A stretch of 64,000 nt of DNA, taken from the sequence record MG383452; one strand, written 5' to 3'. The first letter of the stretch is position 1. Each line of letters starts with the position of its first letter. The stretch comes from Escherichia phage FEC14. The position numbers and the translations under genes were made by a program. Shown here piece by piece: positions 1-55,617 of this stretch. The notes beneath the pieces are model-generated. The model was not told where the DNA came from, did not search any database, and saw only the letters and a list, made by a program, of their open reading frames with translations.

Positions 1-615
1 TATAATATTGATTAAACGCTCTATCTTGACATTAAACATTTGTTGAAACATGACTGAGTATAGACACAATTGAATACTATAATCTTCTATCATGCTTCGA
101 GTTTTTAGGGTGTTGGATGTTTTGAAATCGATTATGCTTGGAATTCCTTCGTAAACCCCGATGAGGTCAACACGACCAGCAAGACCCAGGACTTCGCTAT
201 ATAATGGAATCTCTTGTGCATATATCTTGCTCATTTTGTTAAGGTAGGGGAAAACCTGTTTGAACATAAACACGTATTCCCCTGCAGCTTCCAGAACTTC
301 CTTCATTGGTCTGTTTTTGAGATACAACTCACAAGCCAAATGAAGTTTTTCCCCACGGTCTGCGCAACGATGTGTTTCTATATCAGCAGCTTCATGTCCC
401 AACTTGTCCCGCCAGGCTTCTAACCATGTGTGGTCACCAGTACGCCCTAACATGGTCGTCACTGAAGTTAGTTTGACTCCAGTGGGGGAAACATAGTGAC
501 GACCATTTTCGGTAGTTACGCAAGTCAGTTCCTTAAACGGCAAGGAATATTGCTGAAATGTGTGATGACGATTTTCAAAGTCATTAAGTTTGCGCAAAGC
601 CTGTAGAGAAACCAT
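1..615 (-). CDS. PD-(D/E)XK-type nuclease-like protein, partial (C-terminus beyond window start)
   Basis: Minus-strand frame open from ATG at 615 to the window edge. My translation contains GRVDLIG...IIDFKTS, a D...(D/E)xK nuclease-like motif. Start overlaps the stop of the upstream gene (TAATG). Confidence 0.45.
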   Translation of the reverse strand, partial: MVSLQALRKLNDFENRHHTFQQYSLPFKELTCVTTENGRHYVSPTGVKLTSVTTMLGRTGDHTWLEAWRDKLGHEAADIETHRCADRGEKLHLACELYLKNRPMKEVLEAAGEYVFMFKQVFPYLNKMSKIYAQEIPLYSEVLGLAGRVDLIGVYEGIPSIIDFKTSNTLKTRSMIEDYSIQLCLYSVMFQQMFNVKIERLINII

Positions 616-1070
616 TACATCCCATCCAAATATTTTCGCCAATCAATAGCATTCTTCACTTCATATCCGAGTTTGTTCAAACGATCTAAGCAACTTTCGA
701 TGAACTTGACTTTGGCTTTCTGCTCTTGAAGCATGCTAGACAATTCGATATAATCATCATCTGCTTTTACCCATACGTCTATATCAGATTTCAGGGGGCG
801 AACTTTTAATGGACGTTCAACATAAACGTTGGGTGGCAATTCCCCTGCATAAAATCGGCGTAAATAGAGATCTATTTGGCGGAATTTGCCAGTTAGATAC
901 TCCAGATATCTTCCTTCACGAATATAATGGCGTTGCACAGTCATCCACGAACGACCAATTTTCAATGACATTTGGTCTAAGTTCATGTCTTCAGGATTTA
1001 CCGAAATAAGAGGCTCCAATTCTGCCATTATATCTTCGGTTTTCATCGTTTCAAGTTTTGTTTCGCTCAT
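615..1070 (-). CDS. hypothetical protein
   Basis: 151-aa ORF with ATG start and upstream AGGGAA; 1-nt stop/start overlap with the downstream gene. Confidence 0.5.
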   Translation of the reverse strand: MSETKLETMKTEDIMAELEPLISVNPEDMNLDQMSLKIGRSWMTVQRHYIREGRYLEYLTGKFRQIDLYLRRFYAGELPPNVYVERPLKVRPLKSDIDVWVKADDDYIELSSMLQEQKAKVKFIESCLDRLNKLGYEVKNAIDWRKYLDGM

Positions 1071-1123
1071 GATTTATTCCCTGCTGTTTCAACTCTCTGT
1101 ATTATAACTCTCTGTATTATAAC

Positions 1124-1621
1124 TTATTGTTTATCAATTTCGCGGGTGACGCGAGTCGGAGTCAGTTTCAAATATTTGAACGTGACAGTCGTGACCAGTT
1201 GGGGAACCGCAGCATCCACATCCACCAATACGTTGTCCAAAGCTGTGGGACGGGCTTCTTCCAACAACAATTGTAGACCAACAGGGCGATTCATGTTATT
1301 AAGAAGGTCGATGGTGATGTCACGGCTAACAGCTAAATCAGATCCAGCATTGGACGCAATCCAATTGTAAATCTGTTCCCAGTTGTACCAACTCTCATCG
1401 ATAACGAACGTAAATACGATGGGGTCATACGTGAGACGTTCTGAAGGTATGGAGTTGAGCACATCGCCAGGGGATGGACCCTCGATACCTTCAGAATACA
1501 CTCCAGGAATACTGAAGTCATGTATTGAACGAGTAAGCAATATCAGGTCTCCGATAGTTAAGCGCCATTTATCGGAAGCCGCGAAATTAGGATTTTCGTT
1601 TTTGAATTGTACACCTGTCAT
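1124..1621 (-). CDS. hypothetical protein
   Basis: 165-aa ORF, ATG with AAAGGTG RBS. Confidence 0.5.
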   Translation of the reverse strand: MTGVQFKNENPNFAASDKWRLTIGDLILLTRSIHDFSIPGVYSEGIEGPSPGDVLNSIPSERLTYDPIVFTFVIDESWYNWEQIYNWIASNAGSDLAVSRDITIDLLNNMNRPVGLQLLLEEARPTALDNVLVDVDAAVPQLVTTVTFKYLKLTPTRVTREIDKQ

Positions 1622-1684
1622 GTTAGCACCTTTGCTGTGGAGAACGTTTTAGTGTTCCTGACACGCGGATTCAGAAAATGGATC

Positions 1685-2305
1685 ATGACGATGATAATGG
1701 TGCTTGCACTCACAAGTTGCCGTATCTTTGTCACGTCCGTCATTTCTGTAACCGACCTCTGGGATCCTGAAATCAGAACCATACCTGTTAACATCTCAGC
1801 CGACATTGATAAATGCAATAAAAATATTCTGAATCAAGTAGTATCTGATTTTCAGAACTTTCAGACTCTTCAAGCTGTTGGTTGTTTTGATGATAACAAC
1901 CAGTCACTGAGACCATACTGGAAAACCACGATTCCCCTATTGAGGAAAGGTGACGAAGGAAAGATCCCATATCTATCCGCAAGTATTTATTACTCTCAGA
2001 ATAATAGCATCATAGCGACTTTCAACCCTTCTTTCTTTGACAAACTCAGAAGGAATACTCAAGCAAGGGACGTAGAAATCACCAGAGACGTTGCAATATC
2101 ATTTCAGATAGTTAATAACACCAAATCTCCGATCCGAATTGCCACTCAGGGTGTTTTCGTTAATGGATCTGCTGTAGGTAATGAAATGAACATCTATGAA
2201 ATAAGACCAGGCGGTAAAGTATGGATTCGAATGAGTGATGTTGGGGTGAACTCCCTGGTGATGGAAGGTATCGAACCAGTGGGAGTTCTCCCCGCTAGAC
2301 ATTGA
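1685..2305 (+). CDS. putative lipoprotein, encoded antisense to the surrounding late genes
   Basis: Only long ORF in 1622-2305. Internal ATG at 1685 gives MTMIMVLALTSC, a signal peptide ending in a lipobox-like LTSC. Track ORF starts earlier at 1607. Confidence 0.4.
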   Translation: MTMIMVLALTSCRIFVTSVISVTDLWDPEIRTIPVNISADIDKCNKNILNQVVSDFQNFQTLQAVGCFDDNNQSLRPYWKTTIPLLRKGDEGKIPYLSASIYYSQNNSIIATFNPSFFDKLRRNTQARDVEITRDVAISFQIVNNTKSPIRIATQGVFVNGSAVGNEMNIYEIRPGGKVWIRMSDVGVNSLVMEGIEPVGVLPARH

Positions 2306-3034
2306 TTATTTCAGGGACTCTTTTAATTCTGGAGTCCCTATTTTATCAATAACGCCTCCAGCACAGAGATCTTTGGCCCATTCTTCAAGAACATTCGCAA
2401 AAGAGAAGTTTAGACATTCTTTGATCATACTTTCAATATGAGCAAGTTCTGCAGCTATCCCATCGGTGATATCGTTTATAACTCCATTGACGGCGGTTAT
2501 TGCCTCATTGATATGTCCTGTTACTTCAGCAGCCAATTGCTGTAGTTTTGCCATCTCTTCTGAGGCACCTTCCATAATCATGTCATACAATTCCGATATC
2601 TTGTTTGTTACGGTCTGTAGAGCACCTTCCATAGCATTCAGCCATTGGCGTCCTAAATCCTGAACAACACCAAAAGCCTTGTTGATCAAATCACAATTGT
2701 TTGGCTCTCGTGATATACCCTTCAGACCTGATTTGTATGACACGGAAGTACCGATGCGAGAATACGCGTCATTGATACTTTGGTCGCCATATGTGTTCAG
2801 TGTCGTTATCCCCGTGTTGGCGGTGCTATACATGGTGGTGGCTGCTGTGAGTTTTTCTGGTGTTAGTCCACCAGCCGCCATAGCCGCCTGCATCTCCGGA
2901 GTCGCGTTGGCAGTTATCAATGGTATATTGGTACTACCACTGGTGATTAAATCCTGTGAGGGTCCGGAGAGGGACGGAAGCGGGTTGCTAAATGCATTAC
3001 CAGAGGAAAGGACATCGTAGATTTGTGCGTTCAT
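2306..3034 (-). CDS. hypothetical virion-associated protein
   Basis: 242-aa ORF with ATG start, preceded by a late-promoter-like box and hairpin. Confidence 0.5.
   Translation of the reverse strand: MNAQIYDVLSSGNAFSNPLPSLSGPSQDLITSGSTNIPLITANATPEMQAAMAAGGLTPEKLTAATTMYSTANTGITTLNTYGDQSINDAYSRIGTSVSYKSGLKGISREPNNCDLINKAFGVVQDLGRQWLNAMEGALQTVTNKISELYDMIMEGASEEMAKLQQLAAEVTGHINEAITAVNGVINDITDGIAAELAHIESMIKECLNFSFANVLEEWAKDLCAGGVIDKIGTPELKESLK
2313..2339. terminator. bidirectional hairpin between convergent genes
   Basis: Inverted repeat agggactc / gagtccct flanked by T-rich tracts, between the 1685..2305 (+) and 2306..3034 (-) gene ends. Confidence 0.4.
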
Positions 3035-3062
3035 AAAATACCCCCAATTTTGGGGGTATTTA
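3033..3062 (-). promoter_or_regulatory. late-promoter-like box (TATAAATAcccc) plus 5' hairpin ending in GGGGGTATTTT before ATG
   Basis: Minus strand reads ccgtgatTATAAATAcccccaaaattgggggtatttt-ATG; inverted repeat aaataccccc / gggggtattt. Confidence 0.45.
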
Positions 3063-3270
3063 TAATCACGGAAGATGATAGATAAAATTCTCGCAGAACT
3101 TTTTGGTGTATTTCTTTAGAAATATAAATTTAGGTTCGCGTGGTGTATCTTTCAGATCATTTAGTGTGATATAACTGATTCGCGCCAGAAAGTACATGGT
3201 AAAAGCGACACAAAGAATCAAAATTAATTGCAGCATAGCTAACTCCATATGGGTGTGAAGGCAAACATAT

Positions 3271-3693
3271 TTATAACAATCGTTTGGTTTTGGGTTTGCC
3301 CATGAGAGTGATATTGACATTGACACCTGCTTTTTTCATGCGGGTAATCATGTCTTGCGTCCCAGTAGACGAACCATCCCATAATGCAATTCCAAAGACC
3401 TCAAGACCTTTTTGTTTGGCCAGGGTTGTAGCTTTGTCTAACATATCTTTGTTACGTTGGTTTCCTGCGCCTTTCCCATATATCGTGTGATAATTCTTAG
3501 GGATCTCCATTGGTGTAACATGAACATAATTGATTTCACACCAATCACGAGATATCAAGTCCACACCAACCGCTTCACCTTCTATAAAAGTTTCGATCTC
3601 GTGGGGATCTAACAGTTCATCCAGTTTGGCGAAGATTTTATCCCGCTCGGTTATTGAGCGGGAACCTGTAATGAGCACGACATATTTCTTCAT
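3271..3693 (-). CDS. hypothetical protein, possibly SLOG/DUF2493-like nucleotide-binding fold
   Basis: 141 aa from the internal ATG (track ORF starts at 3738). Pattern VVLITGSRS...GIALWDGSSTGT recalls Rossmann-like SLOG proteins. Weak call. Confidence 0.3.
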   Translation of the reverse strand: MKKYVVLITGSRSITERDKIFAKLDELLDPHEIETFIEGEAVGVDLISRDWCEINYVHVTPMEIPKNYHTIYGKGAGNQRNKDMLDKATTLAKQKGLEVFGIALWDGSSTGTQDMITRMKKAGVNVNITLMGKPKTKRLL

Positions 3694-3698
3694 AGAAC

Positions 3699-4016
3699 TC
3701 ACAGCGCCCCAAGATTGCTGATGACGTACAGGCTGCACAAGGGAGTCCCTGATGAACGAGGTTCTATGCTCATTCCCGAGAGGCGGATCAGTTCCAGCAA
3801 ACCGTCGGTGGTCTGATACGCACGAGTCGAACCGTTTGGACGATATAGCTCCAACTCGGTTCGCCCTTCCTTTAATGCGTTACGGATGCGAGTGAACACA
3901 CTGTGGGCTTGATATTTTTGACGTAGAATATCTAAACGGGTGATGAGATTTCGACTGCGGCTGCGACGTCCCGTTGACGAAACAACTAATTTCATTTCTG
4001 GTGTTTTACAAGCCAT
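3699..4016 (-). CDS. hypothetical protein (Arg-rich)
   Basis: 105-aa ORF, ATG with GAGGA RBS. Confidence 0.5.
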   Translation of the reverse strand: MACKTPEMKLVVSSTGRRSRSRNLITRLDILRQKYQAHSVFTRIRNALKEGRTELELYRPNGSTRAYQTTDGLLELIRLSGMSIEPRSSGTPLCSLYVISNLGAL

Positions 4017-4084
4017 GTTATAGTCCTCTATTTGTAGGGGTCGGGTATGATTTTAACATACCCGTTCAAATGGTTTAGAACAAA

Positions 4085-4549
4085 TTACAGATCTTGGCAC
4101 TGATCGCAATATTCGTCGTATGTGAATGTCTCATCACACAGACCGTCACGCATCATATTGGCCTTGGCTTCGCCAAATATTTTCAGGGTGATAACGTTGC
4201 CGCCTAAATCTTTACGAAGTTCGTTCGGCTTGGTTTCTATGAAGTCGAACACCACAAAGAACCCTTCGGTGACATATTTGATGGTTTTGTTGCTCAGCTT
4301 ACGAATGCCACCGTTCTTTTTGAAGATAGAGGTGCGGAGGTTTTCGAATTCAGCCAGGTTGTCATCGTGATTCTTGATAGCGTTCAGCATTGCGTCAAGG
4401 TCGATTTCAGGACGAAGCATTTTGACCTGATCTTCGCGGTCATAAGAAGTGAAAGATTCTATGTTGGTGATGCCCAGAGCGTTCTTAACAAACGCGTCAA
4501 ATTTGGTGAAATTGTTGAATGCCCAGACGGAGATTTTTACGGTTGTCAT
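4085..4549 (-). CDS. hypothetical protein
   Basis: 154-aa ORF, ATG with GAAGGAA RBS. Confidence 0.5.
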   Translation of the reverse strand: MTTVKISVWAFNNFTKFDAFVKNALGITNIESFTSYDREDQVKMLRPEIDLDAMLNAIKNHDDNLAEFENLRTSIFKKNGGIRKLSNKTIKYVTEGFFVVFDFIETKPNELRKDLGGNVITLKIFGEAKANMMRDGLCDETFTYDEYCDQCQDL

Positions 4550-4652
4550 GGTGTAGTTCCTTCATTTCAGAGTCAGTGTTGTGCTGCTTATGGAATGAAG
4601 TATACGGGGTTTATTGAAGAAGTAAACCCCGTTTATTGAATAAATTTTAAAT

Positions 4653-4889
4653 TTATTTGAAGCGATCAGGAAGAGTGTCGTGAACCTCAGCGCTCAGCAC
4701 CAGGAACTTGCCGTCTTTAGTAGGGAAGCAGTAGTCTTTCTTGATGTGGCGCATGTGTTCAGCCGTAGCCGCTACACAGTCGTTAGTCACGTCGGTCTTC
4801 TCACCTACCCACATACTGGTTTTGGTATTCAATGTACCTTGGAAGATAGTGCCCGTCAACGGGCTTGCTCCAATCTTTTTGATTCTCAT
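4653..4889 (-). CDS. hypothetical protein
   Basis: Start moved to the internal ATG with GGGAGA RBS; ATGA overlap with the stop of the upstream gene. Confidence 0.45.
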   Translation of the reverse strand: MRIKKIGASPLTGTIFQGTLNTKTSMWVGEKTDVTNDCVAATAEHMRHIKKDYCFPTKDGKFLVLSAEVHDTLPDRFK

Positions 4890-5260
4890 AATTTCTCCCA
4901 AGTCCATGTTTGCGCCTTGGCTTTTCCGACTACTGGAACGTTACGGTGCATGTTTCTGAAGCTGCCTGTCTGATAAAAACAGATCCTGATGCGTTCATTT
5001 TCGGTATGCTGTGCCCAAACATGATGACCGTCTGGGTATGGGTCGTGACCAGCGCTACCTCCTTGTAGAGCTGTTTTGGTAACGACATAATGCCCTTGCA
5101 TGTAACCGAAGAATCCCTCAGGGGTGATATAACCAGAGTCCGTTTGCCAATCTCCCTTGCAATTAGAATACAAGAAATGCTTAGGCACCTGAGTTTCAAT
5201 GGTCATTTCTTCTGTGAGAACGAACACATCGCCGACTTGAAGCAGTGGTAAATTGCTCAT
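4886..5260 (-). CDS. hypothetical protein
   Basis: 124-aa ORF, ATG start. Confidence 0.5.
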   Translation of the reverse strand: MSNLPLLQVGDVFVLTEEMTIETQVPKHFLYSNCKGDWQTDSGYITPEGFFGYMQGHYVVTKTALQGGSAGHDPYPDGHHVWAQHTENERIRICFYQTGSFRNMHRNVPVVGKAKAQTWTWEKL

Positions 5261-5271
5261 ATATTAATCTC

Positions 5272-5718
5272 TCACATGTTGCTGATTTTAAATAAAGTCG
5301 GAACATAGCACGGGTGTTGTTCACAGGACATGAAGGTATCAAAACGGGAACCTTTAACCAAGCCAGGCAGTTCGCCTTTCTTCAGGAGATCACGCACTAA
5401 CTCTTGCGTGTCATACCAACTTTTTGCTGGATTGGATTGGGCTTCTGAAACTCGGATTTTCAACTCCCCAGTCGAATAATATTTACCGCTTTCCTTCATA
5501 TAATAAAGGTTGACGGTCAGATATTGAGGAGAATCTATTTCTTCCCAACCGTTATCAACCAAGTCTTGGCGGTCATTGTCGTGACTTTGATAATCAATGT
5601 CACCGCTGGCCAATTTATAGCATTTGAAAATGCGAAAACCTTCGATAGGTGTATCGATGTCGCTACGAAAAAACTGGGAACGTCCTGGACTAATAAAGAT
5701 ATAATTTTGTTTAGACAT
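5272..5718 (-). CDS. hypothetical protein
   Basis: 148-aa ORF, ATG start. Confidence 0.5.
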   Translation of the reverse strand: MSKQNYIFISPGRSQFFRSDIDTPIEGFRIFKCYKLASGDIDYQSHDNDRQDLVDNGWEEIDSPQYLTVNLYYMKESGKYYSTGELKIRVSEAQSNPAKSWYDTQELVRDLLKKGELPGLVKGSRFDTFMSCEQHPCYVPTLFKISNM

Positions 5719-5793
5719 GATGTAGTTCTCTCTTCAAAGTGTTATGTTGTGACAGTTGGGTAATGATGGTTCATTACCCATTTATTGAAAACA

Positions 5794-6108
5794 TTAACAA
5801 TTATCTTTAGACTCGTCTTCACAATTTGGGTGATAAAACGTTCCCAGTTTAGTATGGATGACGTCCATGTGAGCATTGATTCTATCGATGAAATCGTCCT
5901 GCTCTCCTTGTATGTTAAGGATAGCACCAACAAGACCTGGATTGTGTGTTGATTTTTCTTCAGAATCAGATTCGGGAAATTCACCATCTAATTGTCGACG
6001 AATATTGATCACATTAGTGAGGATGTCAAAAAGACGTTCTTTTTGGGTGCGGGAATTAATGAGGATTTGTGACACGGATTGTTCAGAGGTAATATTTCGG
6101 GTTGTCAT
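5794..6108 (-). CDS. hypothetical protein
   Basis: 104-aa ORF, ATG with AGGAG RBS. Confidence 0.5.
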   Translation of the reverse strand: MTTRNITSEQSVSQILINSRTQKERLFDILTNVINIRRQLDGEFPESDSEEKSTHNPGLVGAILNIQGEQDDFIDRINAHMDVIHTKLGTFYHPNCEDESKDNC

Positions 6109-54497: not shown

Positions 54498-54842
54498 ATG
54501 AAACTCAATAAGATTCTTCTGGTGTGTGCTCTGGCTTTCTCTACCACTGCATGCTCTACCCTTCTGGACGTTGCGTCTACTGTTGACCTCGATGCGCCGA
54601 CGTTCACCAATCAGCAAGCGGTGAATAAGATGGAAGACACCATCAAGGCACATGCGGCTTTGGACAACACCGCTCCTGGTCCGTTGCAAACTGTTTGCAA
54701 TTATGATGATTCCATCCAGGAAGATGAAACCTATCACTGCACCACTTACGTGAAGGAATCTTCTGTGGTTCTGTATGCAGATTGCACAGAAGAGCAATGC
54801 ACCGCAACTGGTTATGATCAAGTGGAGAAGTCTGATGAATAA
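54498..54842 (+). CDS. putative lipoprotein
   Basis: MKLNKILLVCALAFSTTAC: signal peptide ending in Cys with a lipobox-like context. Confidence 0.45.
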   Translation: MKLNKILLVCALAFSTTACSTLLDVASTVDLDAPTFTNQQAVNKMEDTIKAHAALDNTAPGPLQTVCNYDDSIQEDETYHCTTYVKESSVVLYADCTEEQCTATGYDQVEKSDE

Positions 54843-55617
54843 TCATGTTGGTCTGTATGATGCCAATTCTAAAATCGGTGGAATGTATCGTATCCTGGTA
54901 GACGTAGACTTGACTTTGGTTGATAGCCTCTCCCCTTGGGTGGATTGGTTTAATATTTCCAATTCAAAAGCTGCTGCGGAAAACATGGGTTGCCATGATT
55001 ATCCCAATGATTTCCAGCGTATCACCAAAGAGTGCTATATGGCTCATGCTGGTGATTTGGCGATCCTCATGCGGGAACGCGCTCACCCAGCATGGTTGAC
55101 ACGCCGTGTGTTTGTTGCTGGTCAATGGATGGATTCACCTACAGGACGTGATCCTATGGATTGGTGGCGCATGCCGGACCTGTATGCCAAGATGAACCCG
55201 CTTCCAGGCGCTTACGAGTTCCTGGTGAATCTGAAGAAGATCCTTCTCGAAGACTTTGAAAATGTTGAATTGATCGCAGTATCTAAGTGTGAGCCAGAAC
55301 ACGAGCGCAGCAAGCGCCAGTTTGTCTATGACAAGTTCCCTGGCATCTTCAACGGGTTCGTCAGCACCGACGAAAAGCATCTTTTGGCAGGTGATGTTTT
55401 AATTGATGATAACCCGAAATACGTTGAACCCTGTGCGATGAACAATATTTTTGTCATCTTTGTTCCCCAGGGAAATTATGAAAAACTGGATCTTTCGAAC
55501 TCGGAAGATATGCTTTATATTAAACCAGTCGAAGGCCAGAACCACTTCGACTTCCTGAACCGCAATATTGTCGAAGTGGTGAACCGCCTGATTGGCCATT
55601 ATCAATACGTCCATTGA
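54835..55617 (+). CDS. HAD-superfamily hydrolase-like protein (possible nucleotidase)
   Basis: ILVDVDLTLVD matches HAD motif I (DxDxT). ATG overlaps the upstream stop (ATGAATAA). Confidence 0.4.
   Translation: MNNHVGLYDANSKIGGMYRILVDVDLTLVDSLSPWVDWFNISNSKAAAENMGCHDYPNDFQRITKECYMAHAGDLAILMRERAHPAWLTRRVFVAGQWMDSPTGRDPMDWWRMPDLYAKMNPLPGAYEFLVNLKKILLEDFENVELIAVSKCEPEHERSKRQFVYDKFPGIFNGFVSTDEKHLLAGDVLIDDNPKYVEPCAMNNIFVIFVPQGNYEKLDLSNSEDMLYIKPVEGQNHFDFLNRNIVEVVNRLIGHYQYVH

Follow-up and report, generated by a model that had tools for sequence, protein, structure and literature searches.

Gene content of the locus

The subject of this study is a plus-strand gene at positions 1652-2305 of a 64,000-nucleotide (nt) stretch of DNA from Escherichia phage FEC14 (sequence record MG383452; hereafter the window), which encodes a protein of the Pfam family DUF7424 that is predicted to be a lipoprotein and for which a role in superinfection exclusion is tentatively proposed. 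According to megablast of positions 1-6000, the window belongs to a Kuttervirus of the family Ackermannviridae (ViI/CBA120-like), with identities of 98.9% over 100% of the query to the Salmonella phages Se-E and SFP10 and of 96.8% to the E. coli phage CBA120. The locus had been singled out in a first-pass annotation, made by a model from the sequence alone, as holding a single long open reading frame (ORF) between two minus-strand late structural genes. The plus-strand ORF (TGA stop at 2303-2305) is indeed the sole long one between the gp3-like and DUF7217 genes (Table 1), and the late structural character of these neighbours is backed by the TATAAATA motif that precedes the DUF7217 gene as well as by their homologues in phage LIMEstone1, ORF127 (gp3-like) and ORF129 (DUF7217), both of which were confirmed as virion proteins by mass spectrometry (PMC3296691). 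The DUF7217 neighbour is a virion protein with no assigned role, whose 25-kDa LIMEstone1 counterpart (ORF129) is recorded as a 'confirmed structural protein'. Orthologs of the lipoprotein gene are orf170/gp131 in CBA120 ('hypothetical protein', 217 aa), ORF128 in LIMEstone1 and gp171 in Mutine (annotated with 204 aa), and in the CBA120 annotation the ortholog is the only plus-strand gene among 18 features in a 9.4-kb stretch.

Table 1. Features of the lipoprotein locus and of a second lipoprotein-like gene, with positions in the window
Feature	Position	Strand	Evidence
gp3-like tail completion / sheath stabiliser gene	1124..1621	-	phrog_45 tail protein; CBA120 and Mutine annotations
Shine-Dalgarno sequence GGAGA, 8 nt before the GTG start	1639..1643	+	conserved in relatives
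DUF7424 gene (predicted lipoprotein), 217-aa precursor, GTG start, TGA stop	1652..2305	+	PF24199, phrog_3832; CBA120 start identical
Predicted signal peptide, 22 aa: n-region MFLTRGFRK, h-region WIMTMIMVLA, lipobox L-T-S before Cys23	1652..1717	+	PS51257
Codon of Cys23, predicted lipidated N-terminus of the mature protein; +2 = Arg	1718..1720	+	family alignment
Mature protein, 195 aa	1718..2302	+	AlphaFold2 model
DUF7217 gene, convergent with the lipoprotein gene	2306..3034	-	Pfam PF23854, E = 1.7e-101
Intrinsic-terminator-like hairpin: AGGGACUCU, 9-nt loop, GGAGUCCCU, then AUUUUA	2313..2345	+	RNA fold
T4-type late promoter motif TATAAATA, upstream of the DUF7217 gene	3057..3064	-	motif search
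DUF7292 lipoprotein-like gene, 114 aa, MKLNKILLVCALAFSTTA followed by C	54498..54842	+	PF23964, E = 8.6e-53; phrog_3748

That the plus-strand ORF is a real gene and not a chance ORF is practically certain. Its product matched the Pfam model DUF7424 (PF24199) with an E-value of 9.5e-61 and 205 bits, against a cut-off of 27, along profile positions 2-195 of 196, and was assigned to phrog_3832 with an E-value of 2e-109. Close homologues (n = 53) were retrieved from a database of 5.8 billion proteins and distant ones (n = 87) by a profile search of 1.84 billion cluster representatives, to which a second and a third word-indexed protein search added few distant members. Three phage records, one of them phage pertopsoe, already name the protein 'putative lipoprotein'. 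A codon-position comparison among close Kutterviruses yielded only 2 substitutions, too few to be of use. At the phiMAM1/Bue1 distance, the protein diverges faster than gp3 (35-38% vs. 62-64% identity), as expected of a protein at a host or phage interface.

Start codon and lipoprotein signal

The start had initially been placed at an internal ATG (1685), which proved wrong: the real start is GTG 1652, with GGAGA ahead of it, and it is conserved across genera. GGAGA followed by GTG was found at this position in the window, CBA120, phiD3, Menlow, phiMAM1, and Bue1, and GGAG followed by TTG at the equivalent position in Vibrio phage BX-1; in addition, the n-region that is read from the GTG (MxLMRGIxR) is conserved in the protein alignment. 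Several public coding sequences (CDSs) are truncated at the 5' end, those of Bue1 and phiMAM1 starting at 3349 (locus L008, 3001-3672) and 1858 (locus L010, 1501-2166), respectively, and that of Mutine (locus L002, 2176-2790) beginning at the third in-frame ATG. As these truncations drop all or part of the signal peptide, the lipoprotein nature of the product has been hidden in the three records.

The lipobox-type signal (...LALTSC) described at the outset is present and becomes complete with the corrected start. From position 1652 it reads MFLTRGFRKWIMTMIMVLALTS followed by C, with the cysteine at residue 23 (Cys23) and three basic residues, and it passes PROSITE PS51257. This entry combines the pattern {DERK}(6)-[LIVMFWSTAG](2)-[LIVMFYSTAGCQ]-[AGS]-C with two accessory rules, namely that the Cys lies within residues 15-35 and that at least one K/R is found in the first seven residues. 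With the GTG start, the pattern is matched by TMIMVL-AL-T-S-C23 and the rules by Cys23 and R5, whereas with the start at 1685 the Cys becomes residue 12, the basic n-region is absent, and both accessory rules fail.

In an alignment of 61 homologues, which reaches down to ~15% identity with the window protein, Cys23 was the sole invariant column. Cys55 and Cys78 were conserved in at least 90% of the sequences, and this near-invariance would fit a location in an oxidising compartment. A separate protein alignment showed a conserved n-region and lipobox and a variable h-region. The strict PS51257 rule was passed by 105/133 full-length family members, most failures being due to mis-called starts, and the 26 IMG/VR homologues with a readable N-terminus have M, K/R, a hydrophobic stretch, L-x-G-C, and then K. 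The authors of the LIMEstone1 genome had also noted 'putative signal peptide present' for ORF128 (PMC3296691). Judging from sequence, the DUF7424 protein is very likely a lipoprotein. The residue at position +2 is R in 48, K in 37, and D in 12 family members, and it is Arg in the Ackermannviridae, which according to the E. coli +2 rule predicts sorting to the outer membrane; the final membrane is nevertheless uncertain, because in the AlphaFold model an ordered strand begins right after the Cys without a flexible tether.

Predicted structure

The mature protein was modelled with AlphaFold2 using the 61-sequence alignment as input, with a predicted local distance difference test (pLDDT) score of 91.9 and a predicted template modelling (pTM) score of 0.85. 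The model has 15 strands and 5 helices, arranged in a mixed alpha/beta part up to about residue 137 and a strand-rich C-terminal part. Foldseek returned no meaningful match in the PDB (best template modelling score ~0.2), and in BFVD it returned only other DUF7424 proteins; a sequence-profile search of the PDB with DUF7424 likewise gave no match. As modelled, the DUF7424 fold looks unrepresented in the PDB and BFVD and gives no functional lead.

Distribution and genomic context of homologues

Using the phiMAM1 homologue as a tblastn query, homologues were recovered from 348 phage records, among which every Ackermannviridae genus that was sampled is represented (Kuttervirus, Limestonevirus, Taipeivirus, Miltonvirus, Nezavisimistyvirus, and Vibrio Ackermannviridae). 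Everywhere inspected (CBA120, Mutine, Menlow, phiD3/LIMEstone1, phiMAM1, Bue1, Vibrio phage BX-1, and K474), the gene lies on the opposite strand to the gp3-like gene and diverges from it, and the pairing with gp3 is kept even where the gene on the other side is a different one, as with the major capsid gene of BX-1 and the homing endonuclease of K474. The lipoprotein gene is a core gene of the Ackermannviridae that forms its own monocistronic unit on the strand opposite to the virion genes. A divergent DUF7424 paralogue was found in Vibrio phage 1.244.A (locus L007, 3495-4124; E = 3.6e-13), where it has an LPAM_1 lipobox match and is annotated as 'membrane lipoprotein'. Unlike the gp3-adjacent genes elsewhere, it lies directly upstream of a pectin-lyase-fold tailspike gene on the same strand, an arrangement that recalls the pairing of T5 llp with the receptor-binding gene.

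The surroundings of distant homologues were sampled by a peptide-pattern scan of IMG/VR, which yielded 28 loci; genes were called in these, representative neighbours were annotated with Pfam, and the labels were propagated locally. Class representatives were true PF24199 members (E-values of 1e-29 to 1e-41), and in 2 loci no gene was called. Immunity regions accounted for 13/26 loci, comprising five with the order CI(186-type)-[X]-integrase on a single strand, four with an HTH-S24 (helix-turn-helix) repressor 1-3 genes upstream on the same strand, and four with a repressor within 3-4 genes on the opposite strand. Myovirus tail modules made up another 8/26, with the homologue located between the tape measure and Mu gp43 genes (three loci) or between the baseplate hub and spike genes (five loci). 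The slot between CI and integrase is a classic position of exclusion and conversion genes, and a gene that is co-oriented with the repressor in this slot is expected to be expressed in the lysogen. Furthermore, a Pasteurellaceae homologue (P0115) occurs in E217/Pa193-like myovirus prophages between the tape measure and a Dit-like baseplate gene, and another one (P0142) is set apart by large intergenic gaps within a prophage-like stretch. Every typable carrier was contractile-tailed (Ackermannviridae, Mu-like, P2/186-like, and E217-like), with chromosomal (non-viral) contexts being under-sampled.

Termination and transcription

A bidirectional terminator had been reported after the stop codon of the lipoprotein gene, and this claim was borne out in part. 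The stem-loop is present, with its 5' arm at 2313-2321 and its 3' arm at 2331-2339, followed by AUUUUAU (-14.7 kcal/mol); it was missed by a simple consensus terminator scan with a loop limit of 8 nt. The U-tract is confined to the plus strand, the minus strand reading GAAAUAAUCAAU after the stem, so that the structure is not bidirectional and would terminate transcripts of the lipoprotein gene only. With the stop codons of the two genes abutting (TGA and TTA at 2305/2306), it falls within the final ~12 codons of the DUF7217 gene. Stem-loops with a U-tract but of unrelated sequence were found at the equivalent position in phiMAM1, K474, Bue1, BX-1, and Menlow, the one in phiD3 being weak, and the annotators of Menlow had placed a terminator there. 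That the position is conserved despite the unrelated sequences supports a genuine, separately terminated plus-strand transcript.

The start codons of gp3 and of the lipoprotein gene are 30 nt apart and the spacer consists of two Shine-Dalgarno sequences placed back to back, hence the promoter of each gene must lie inside or beyond the other. The TATAAATA motif has only 3 copies in 64 kb, which is not an enrichment, and none of them is on the plus strand near the lipoprotein gene. In the LIMEstone1 record, late promoters are marked upstream of ORF129/130 only and none for ORF127 or ORF128. Given the promoter-less spacer and the restriction of late promoters to ORF129/130, gp3 may be reached by late transcripts that start at ~3050; the copy of TATAAATA in front of the DUF7217 gene would be the nearest recognisable promoter able to drive gp3 too, running antisense through the lipoprotein gene. 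No Ackermannviridae transcriptome was found in the literature searched.

This copy of TATAAATA directly adjoins a GC-rich hairpin (CCCCCAAAATTGGGGG, 3041-3056) with a U-tract that reaches the ATG of the DUF7217 gene (window 3036-3064). Transcripts from farther upstream would meet this terminator, and those initiated at TATAAATA would begin within its 5' arm and escape. An equivalent pair of terminator and late promoter was marked by the LIMEstone1 annotators before the DUF7217 homologue.

Proposed function

By analogy with known systems, the function that we tentatively favour, at somewhat less than an even chance, is superinfection exclusion at the step in which contractile tails penetrate or deliver their DNA. 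The precursor would be exported by Sec, Cys23 would be lipidated and the 22-aa signal peptide removed by Lgt, LspA, and Lnt, and the compact 195-aa domain would then be anchored to a membrane on the periplasmic side. The protein would be made in the infected cell or lysogen without being built into virions, and its action in the envelope would stop further contractile-tail phages from completing penetration or DNA delivery, with the tip of the incoming tail (tape measure, hub, or spike) or its periplasmic contact as the likely target. Progeny might additionally be spared abortive ejection into debris. More speculatively, late minus-strand transcripts running from the DUF7217 promoter to gp3 could be antisense to the lipoprotein mRNA and shut it down late.

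An exclusion role fits periplasmic anchoring, absence from virions, the separate transcription unit, and the faster divergence compared with gp3, and it gains indirect support from the contexts of the distant homologues, i.e., immunity modules and positions beside tape-measure/hub genes. As a core gene kept in hundreds of strictly lytic phages, it should bring its benefit to the phage during infection and not to the bacterium. In the LIMEstone1 virion proteome (39 proteins), ORF128 was absent and its neighbours ORF127 and ORF129 were present (PMC3296691), and no homologue appears in the part of the Sajous1 virion protein lists that was available (PMC10892097); the DUF7424 protein is probably not a virion component.

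Several points weigh against exclusion. The absence of ORF128 from the LIMEstone1 proteome is weak negative evidence, as gp4 and gp53 were missed there too. No convincing sigma-70-like promoter was found in a scan of the window or in the 200 nt upstream of the gene in seven genera, and no T4-late motif preceded it in any genus, which leaves early expression without support. No experiment on any DUF7424 member was found in the literature and the function is drawn from context by analogy; the family resembled Llp, Cor, Ltp, Sp, and Imm neither in sequence nor in fold, and no PADLOC-DB 2.0 defence model matched any of 9 family members (E ≤ 0.01). Moreover, 5/26 loci were unclassifiable and IMG/VR was sampled with one peptide pattern only, so that the proportions of the contexts are biased. 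The tail-module copies of prophages are on the same strand as the tail genes with short gaps, which could mean late co-expression rather than expression in the lysogen, and the position in immunity regions is equally typical of lysogenic-conversion genes with other roles.

The last point leads to the rival that survives best, an envelope lipoprotein with some other role in the infected cell or lysogen that does not block phage entry, e.g., stabilising the envelope, conferring resistance to serum or stress (as lambda Bor does), controlling vesiculation, or inhibiting a defence or protease in the periplasm or outer membrane of the host. The evidence on localisation applies to it equally, moron-like positions and those in immunity regions are typical of conversion genes too, and no similarity to any known exclusion protein was seen. 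For a function that serves mainly the bacterium, however, retention among the core genes of 348 strictly lytic Ackermannviridae genomes is not to be expected, and the adjacency to tape-measure, hub, or spike genes recurs in three unrelated myovirus lineages, which points to a link of the family with tail function; we regard such a role as unlikely, though worth keeping in view.

It is very improbable that the protein is instead a tail assembly or virion protein with an unprocessed hydrophobic N-terminus that works with the tape measure and baseplate. Homologues do occupy same-strand positions in tail modules (8/26 viral loci and the Pasteurellaceae prophages), and in the Ackermannviridae the gene adjoins gp3 and a gene for a virion protein. 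Nevertheless, with its invariant lipobox Cys and canonical signal the protein is predicted to be exported from the cytoplasm, where tails are assembled, ORF128 was undetected in LIMEstone1 virions in which both neighbours were detected, one homologue in two belongs to an immunity module at a distance from the tail genes, and in the lytic phages the gene has the opposite strand and its own terminator.

The Rz1-class o-spanins are short, Pro-rich, and largely unstructured. The suggestion in the first-pass annotation of a spanin component, i.e., an o-spanin-like or other lysis-related outer-membrane lipoprotein acting late with a partner, shares with these the outer-membrane lipoprotein signature and a +2 residue other than Asp, yet it is the most improbable of all, as of four defining features only the lipoprotein signal is found and the other three (partner gene, size and fold, context) fail: the mature protein has 195 aa and is confidently folded (pLDDT 91.9), no embedded, overlapping, or adjacent i-spanin exists and both neighbours are opposite-strand virion genes, the gene forms a monocistronic unit closed by a terminator of its own, the neighbours of homologues are repressors, integrases, or tail genes, with a lysis cassette in 0/29 loci examined, 12 family members do carry Asp at +2, and in Vi01-like phages other genes carry the Rz-like and i-spanin annotations (PMC10892097).

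Returning to superinfection exclusion, its widest version would make DUF7424 a widespread and structurally new family of exclusion lipoproteins, specific to contractile-tailed phages of Gram-negatives, which intercepts the tail tip at the periplasmic membrane face, is found in immunity or tail modules of temperate Mu-like, P2-like, and E217-like phages and has become fixed in the lytic Ackermannviridae with convergent late transcription as an antisense off-switch. This version as a whole is possible but rather doubtful.

Further observations in the window

The second lipoprotein-like ORF that had been pointed out after the DNA polymerase gene is real. It has the canonical lipobox MKLNKILLVCALAFSTTAC with Cys19 and passes PS51257. 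The gene lies just after the DNA polymerase gene, is unrelated to DUF7424 and codes for a mature part with several Cys; at its 3' end there is an overlap with the beginning of a 5'-nucleotidase-like gene (54775-55617). It was found in 276 enterobacterial Ackermannviridae records, in which it is always annotated as hypothetical.

The DUF7217 protein (242 aa) had weak PHROG matches (E-values of 1e-3 to 1e-2) to several tape-measure families and to a baseplate hub / tail lysozyme family, and may be a coiled-coil internal tail protein. In PHROG it shares the label 'GTP-binding domain' with the SLOG-like protein next to it, and the family so named looks chimeric. Positions 1093-1123 of the minus strand, located between the stop codon of gp3 and the start codon of uvsY, hold a 16-nt element, GTTATAATACAGAGAG, in perfect tandem duplicate; the copies share one base and contain TATAAT. 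The element had 2 matches in the window vs. 0.44 expected and no further copy; the duplication may be a doubled promoter or regulatory site for uvsY.

Two leads from related phages were followed and rejected. The Sajous1 genes described as 'gp214 tail completion, gp215-217 hypothetical' do not represent this locus, since gp214-217 of MW021757 lie near the primase and gp214 has 795 aa; the labels that the paper gives to the Sajous1 'ferrojan horse' operon gp214-gp217 (PMC10892097) are not obviously in agreement with MW021757 (locus L003). The overlapping pair gp155/gp154 near the helicase in Mutine was considered as possible spanins and turned out to be a zinc-finger protein and a soluble protein.

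Significance

The gene had already been catalogued as Pfam DUF7424 and at times labelled 'putative lipoprotein', and no publication on DUF7424 was found in the literature search; the family-wide lipidation signal, the pattern of contexts, and the exclusion hypothesis have apparently not been reported before. As regards annotation, a correction is provided here for the gene start, which several public entries (Mutine, Bue1, phiMAM1) place wrongly or cut short. Ackermannviridae (ViI, CBA120, LIMEstone, and relatives) are used or proposed for biocontrol and therapy, often in cocktails that combine related phages, and a core exclusion factor, if true, would affect co-infection, cocktail design, and recombination among them. 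Few exclusion mechanisms against contractile-tailed phages are known in Gram-negatives, mostly from T4; DUF7424, lying beside repressors or tape-measure genes in several myovirus lineages, is a concrete candidate that is cheap to test. Should it bind a protein of the tail tip, it could become a probe of myovirus tail passage across the periplasm.

Comparison with known systems

Among characterised phage envelope proteins, the Rz1-type o-spanins resemble the DUF7424 protein as outer-membrane lipoproteins of phages and differ from it in size, fold, i-spanin partner, and context. Glo of the P2/186-like Vibrio phage K139 is a periplasmic exclusion protein encoded in the prophage control region (PMC3952083, PMC4870250). 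In contrast to DUF7424, it is described as soluble and not lipidated, and as a candidate homologue of the CI-X-Int proteins it was rejected, tblastn of a CI-X-Int DUF7424 protein giving no match among phage records, a collection in which the presence of K139 is unconfirmed.

Proteins that act after adsorption offer a functional parallel. HK97 gp15 is a moron in the tail operon beside the tape measure gene and acts on penetration or DNA entry after adsorption, as do T4 Imm and Sp at the post-adsorption stage; Sp works in the periplasm and neutralises the lysozyme at the tip of the incoming tail. Unlike lipoproteins, these proteins are either located in the inner membrane or soluble in the periplasm, and none is related to DUF7424 in sequence or fold. 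Llp of T5 and Cor of phi80/N15/HK022, on the other hand, are small outer-membrane lipoproteins that the phage produces within the cell and that inactivate its own receptor FhuA and thereby prevent superinfection and the loss of progeny on debris. The window gene is like llp in being a gene of a lytic phage that forms a separate unit among late genes (for T5 Llp, see PMC9409062). It differs in that Llp and Cor have ~60-80 aa and an unrelated sequence, and in that it adjoins gp3 and not a receptor-binding gene, only the paralogue in 1.244.A abutting a tailspike gene in an Llp-like pairing. As Ackermannviridae recognise polysaccharides via their tailspikes, a target for receptor masking is not obvious.

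The general picture of post-adsorption exclusion proteins is given in PMC3952083, which also covers Ltp of the Streptococcus thermophilus phage TP-J34, a lysogeny-module lipoprotein that prevents injection by acting on the tape measure. No match to Lipoprotein_Ltp was obtained, since all 61 aligned members matched only DUF7424 in Pfam, apart from single matches at chance level. Ltp is anchored to the cytoplasmic membrane of a Gram-positive and built of helix-turn-helix-like repeats, whereas the carriers of DUF7424 are myoviruses of Gram-negatives, some of them strictly lytic. A placement next to a repressor or integrase, as in a lysogeny module, applies to 13/26 of the distant homologues and not to the lytic phage of the window. 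The likeness is that Ltp is a phage lipoprotein encoded in a lysogeny module and expressed from the prophage, and that relatives of DUF7424 occupy the CI-X-Int slot or lie beside tape-measure genes.

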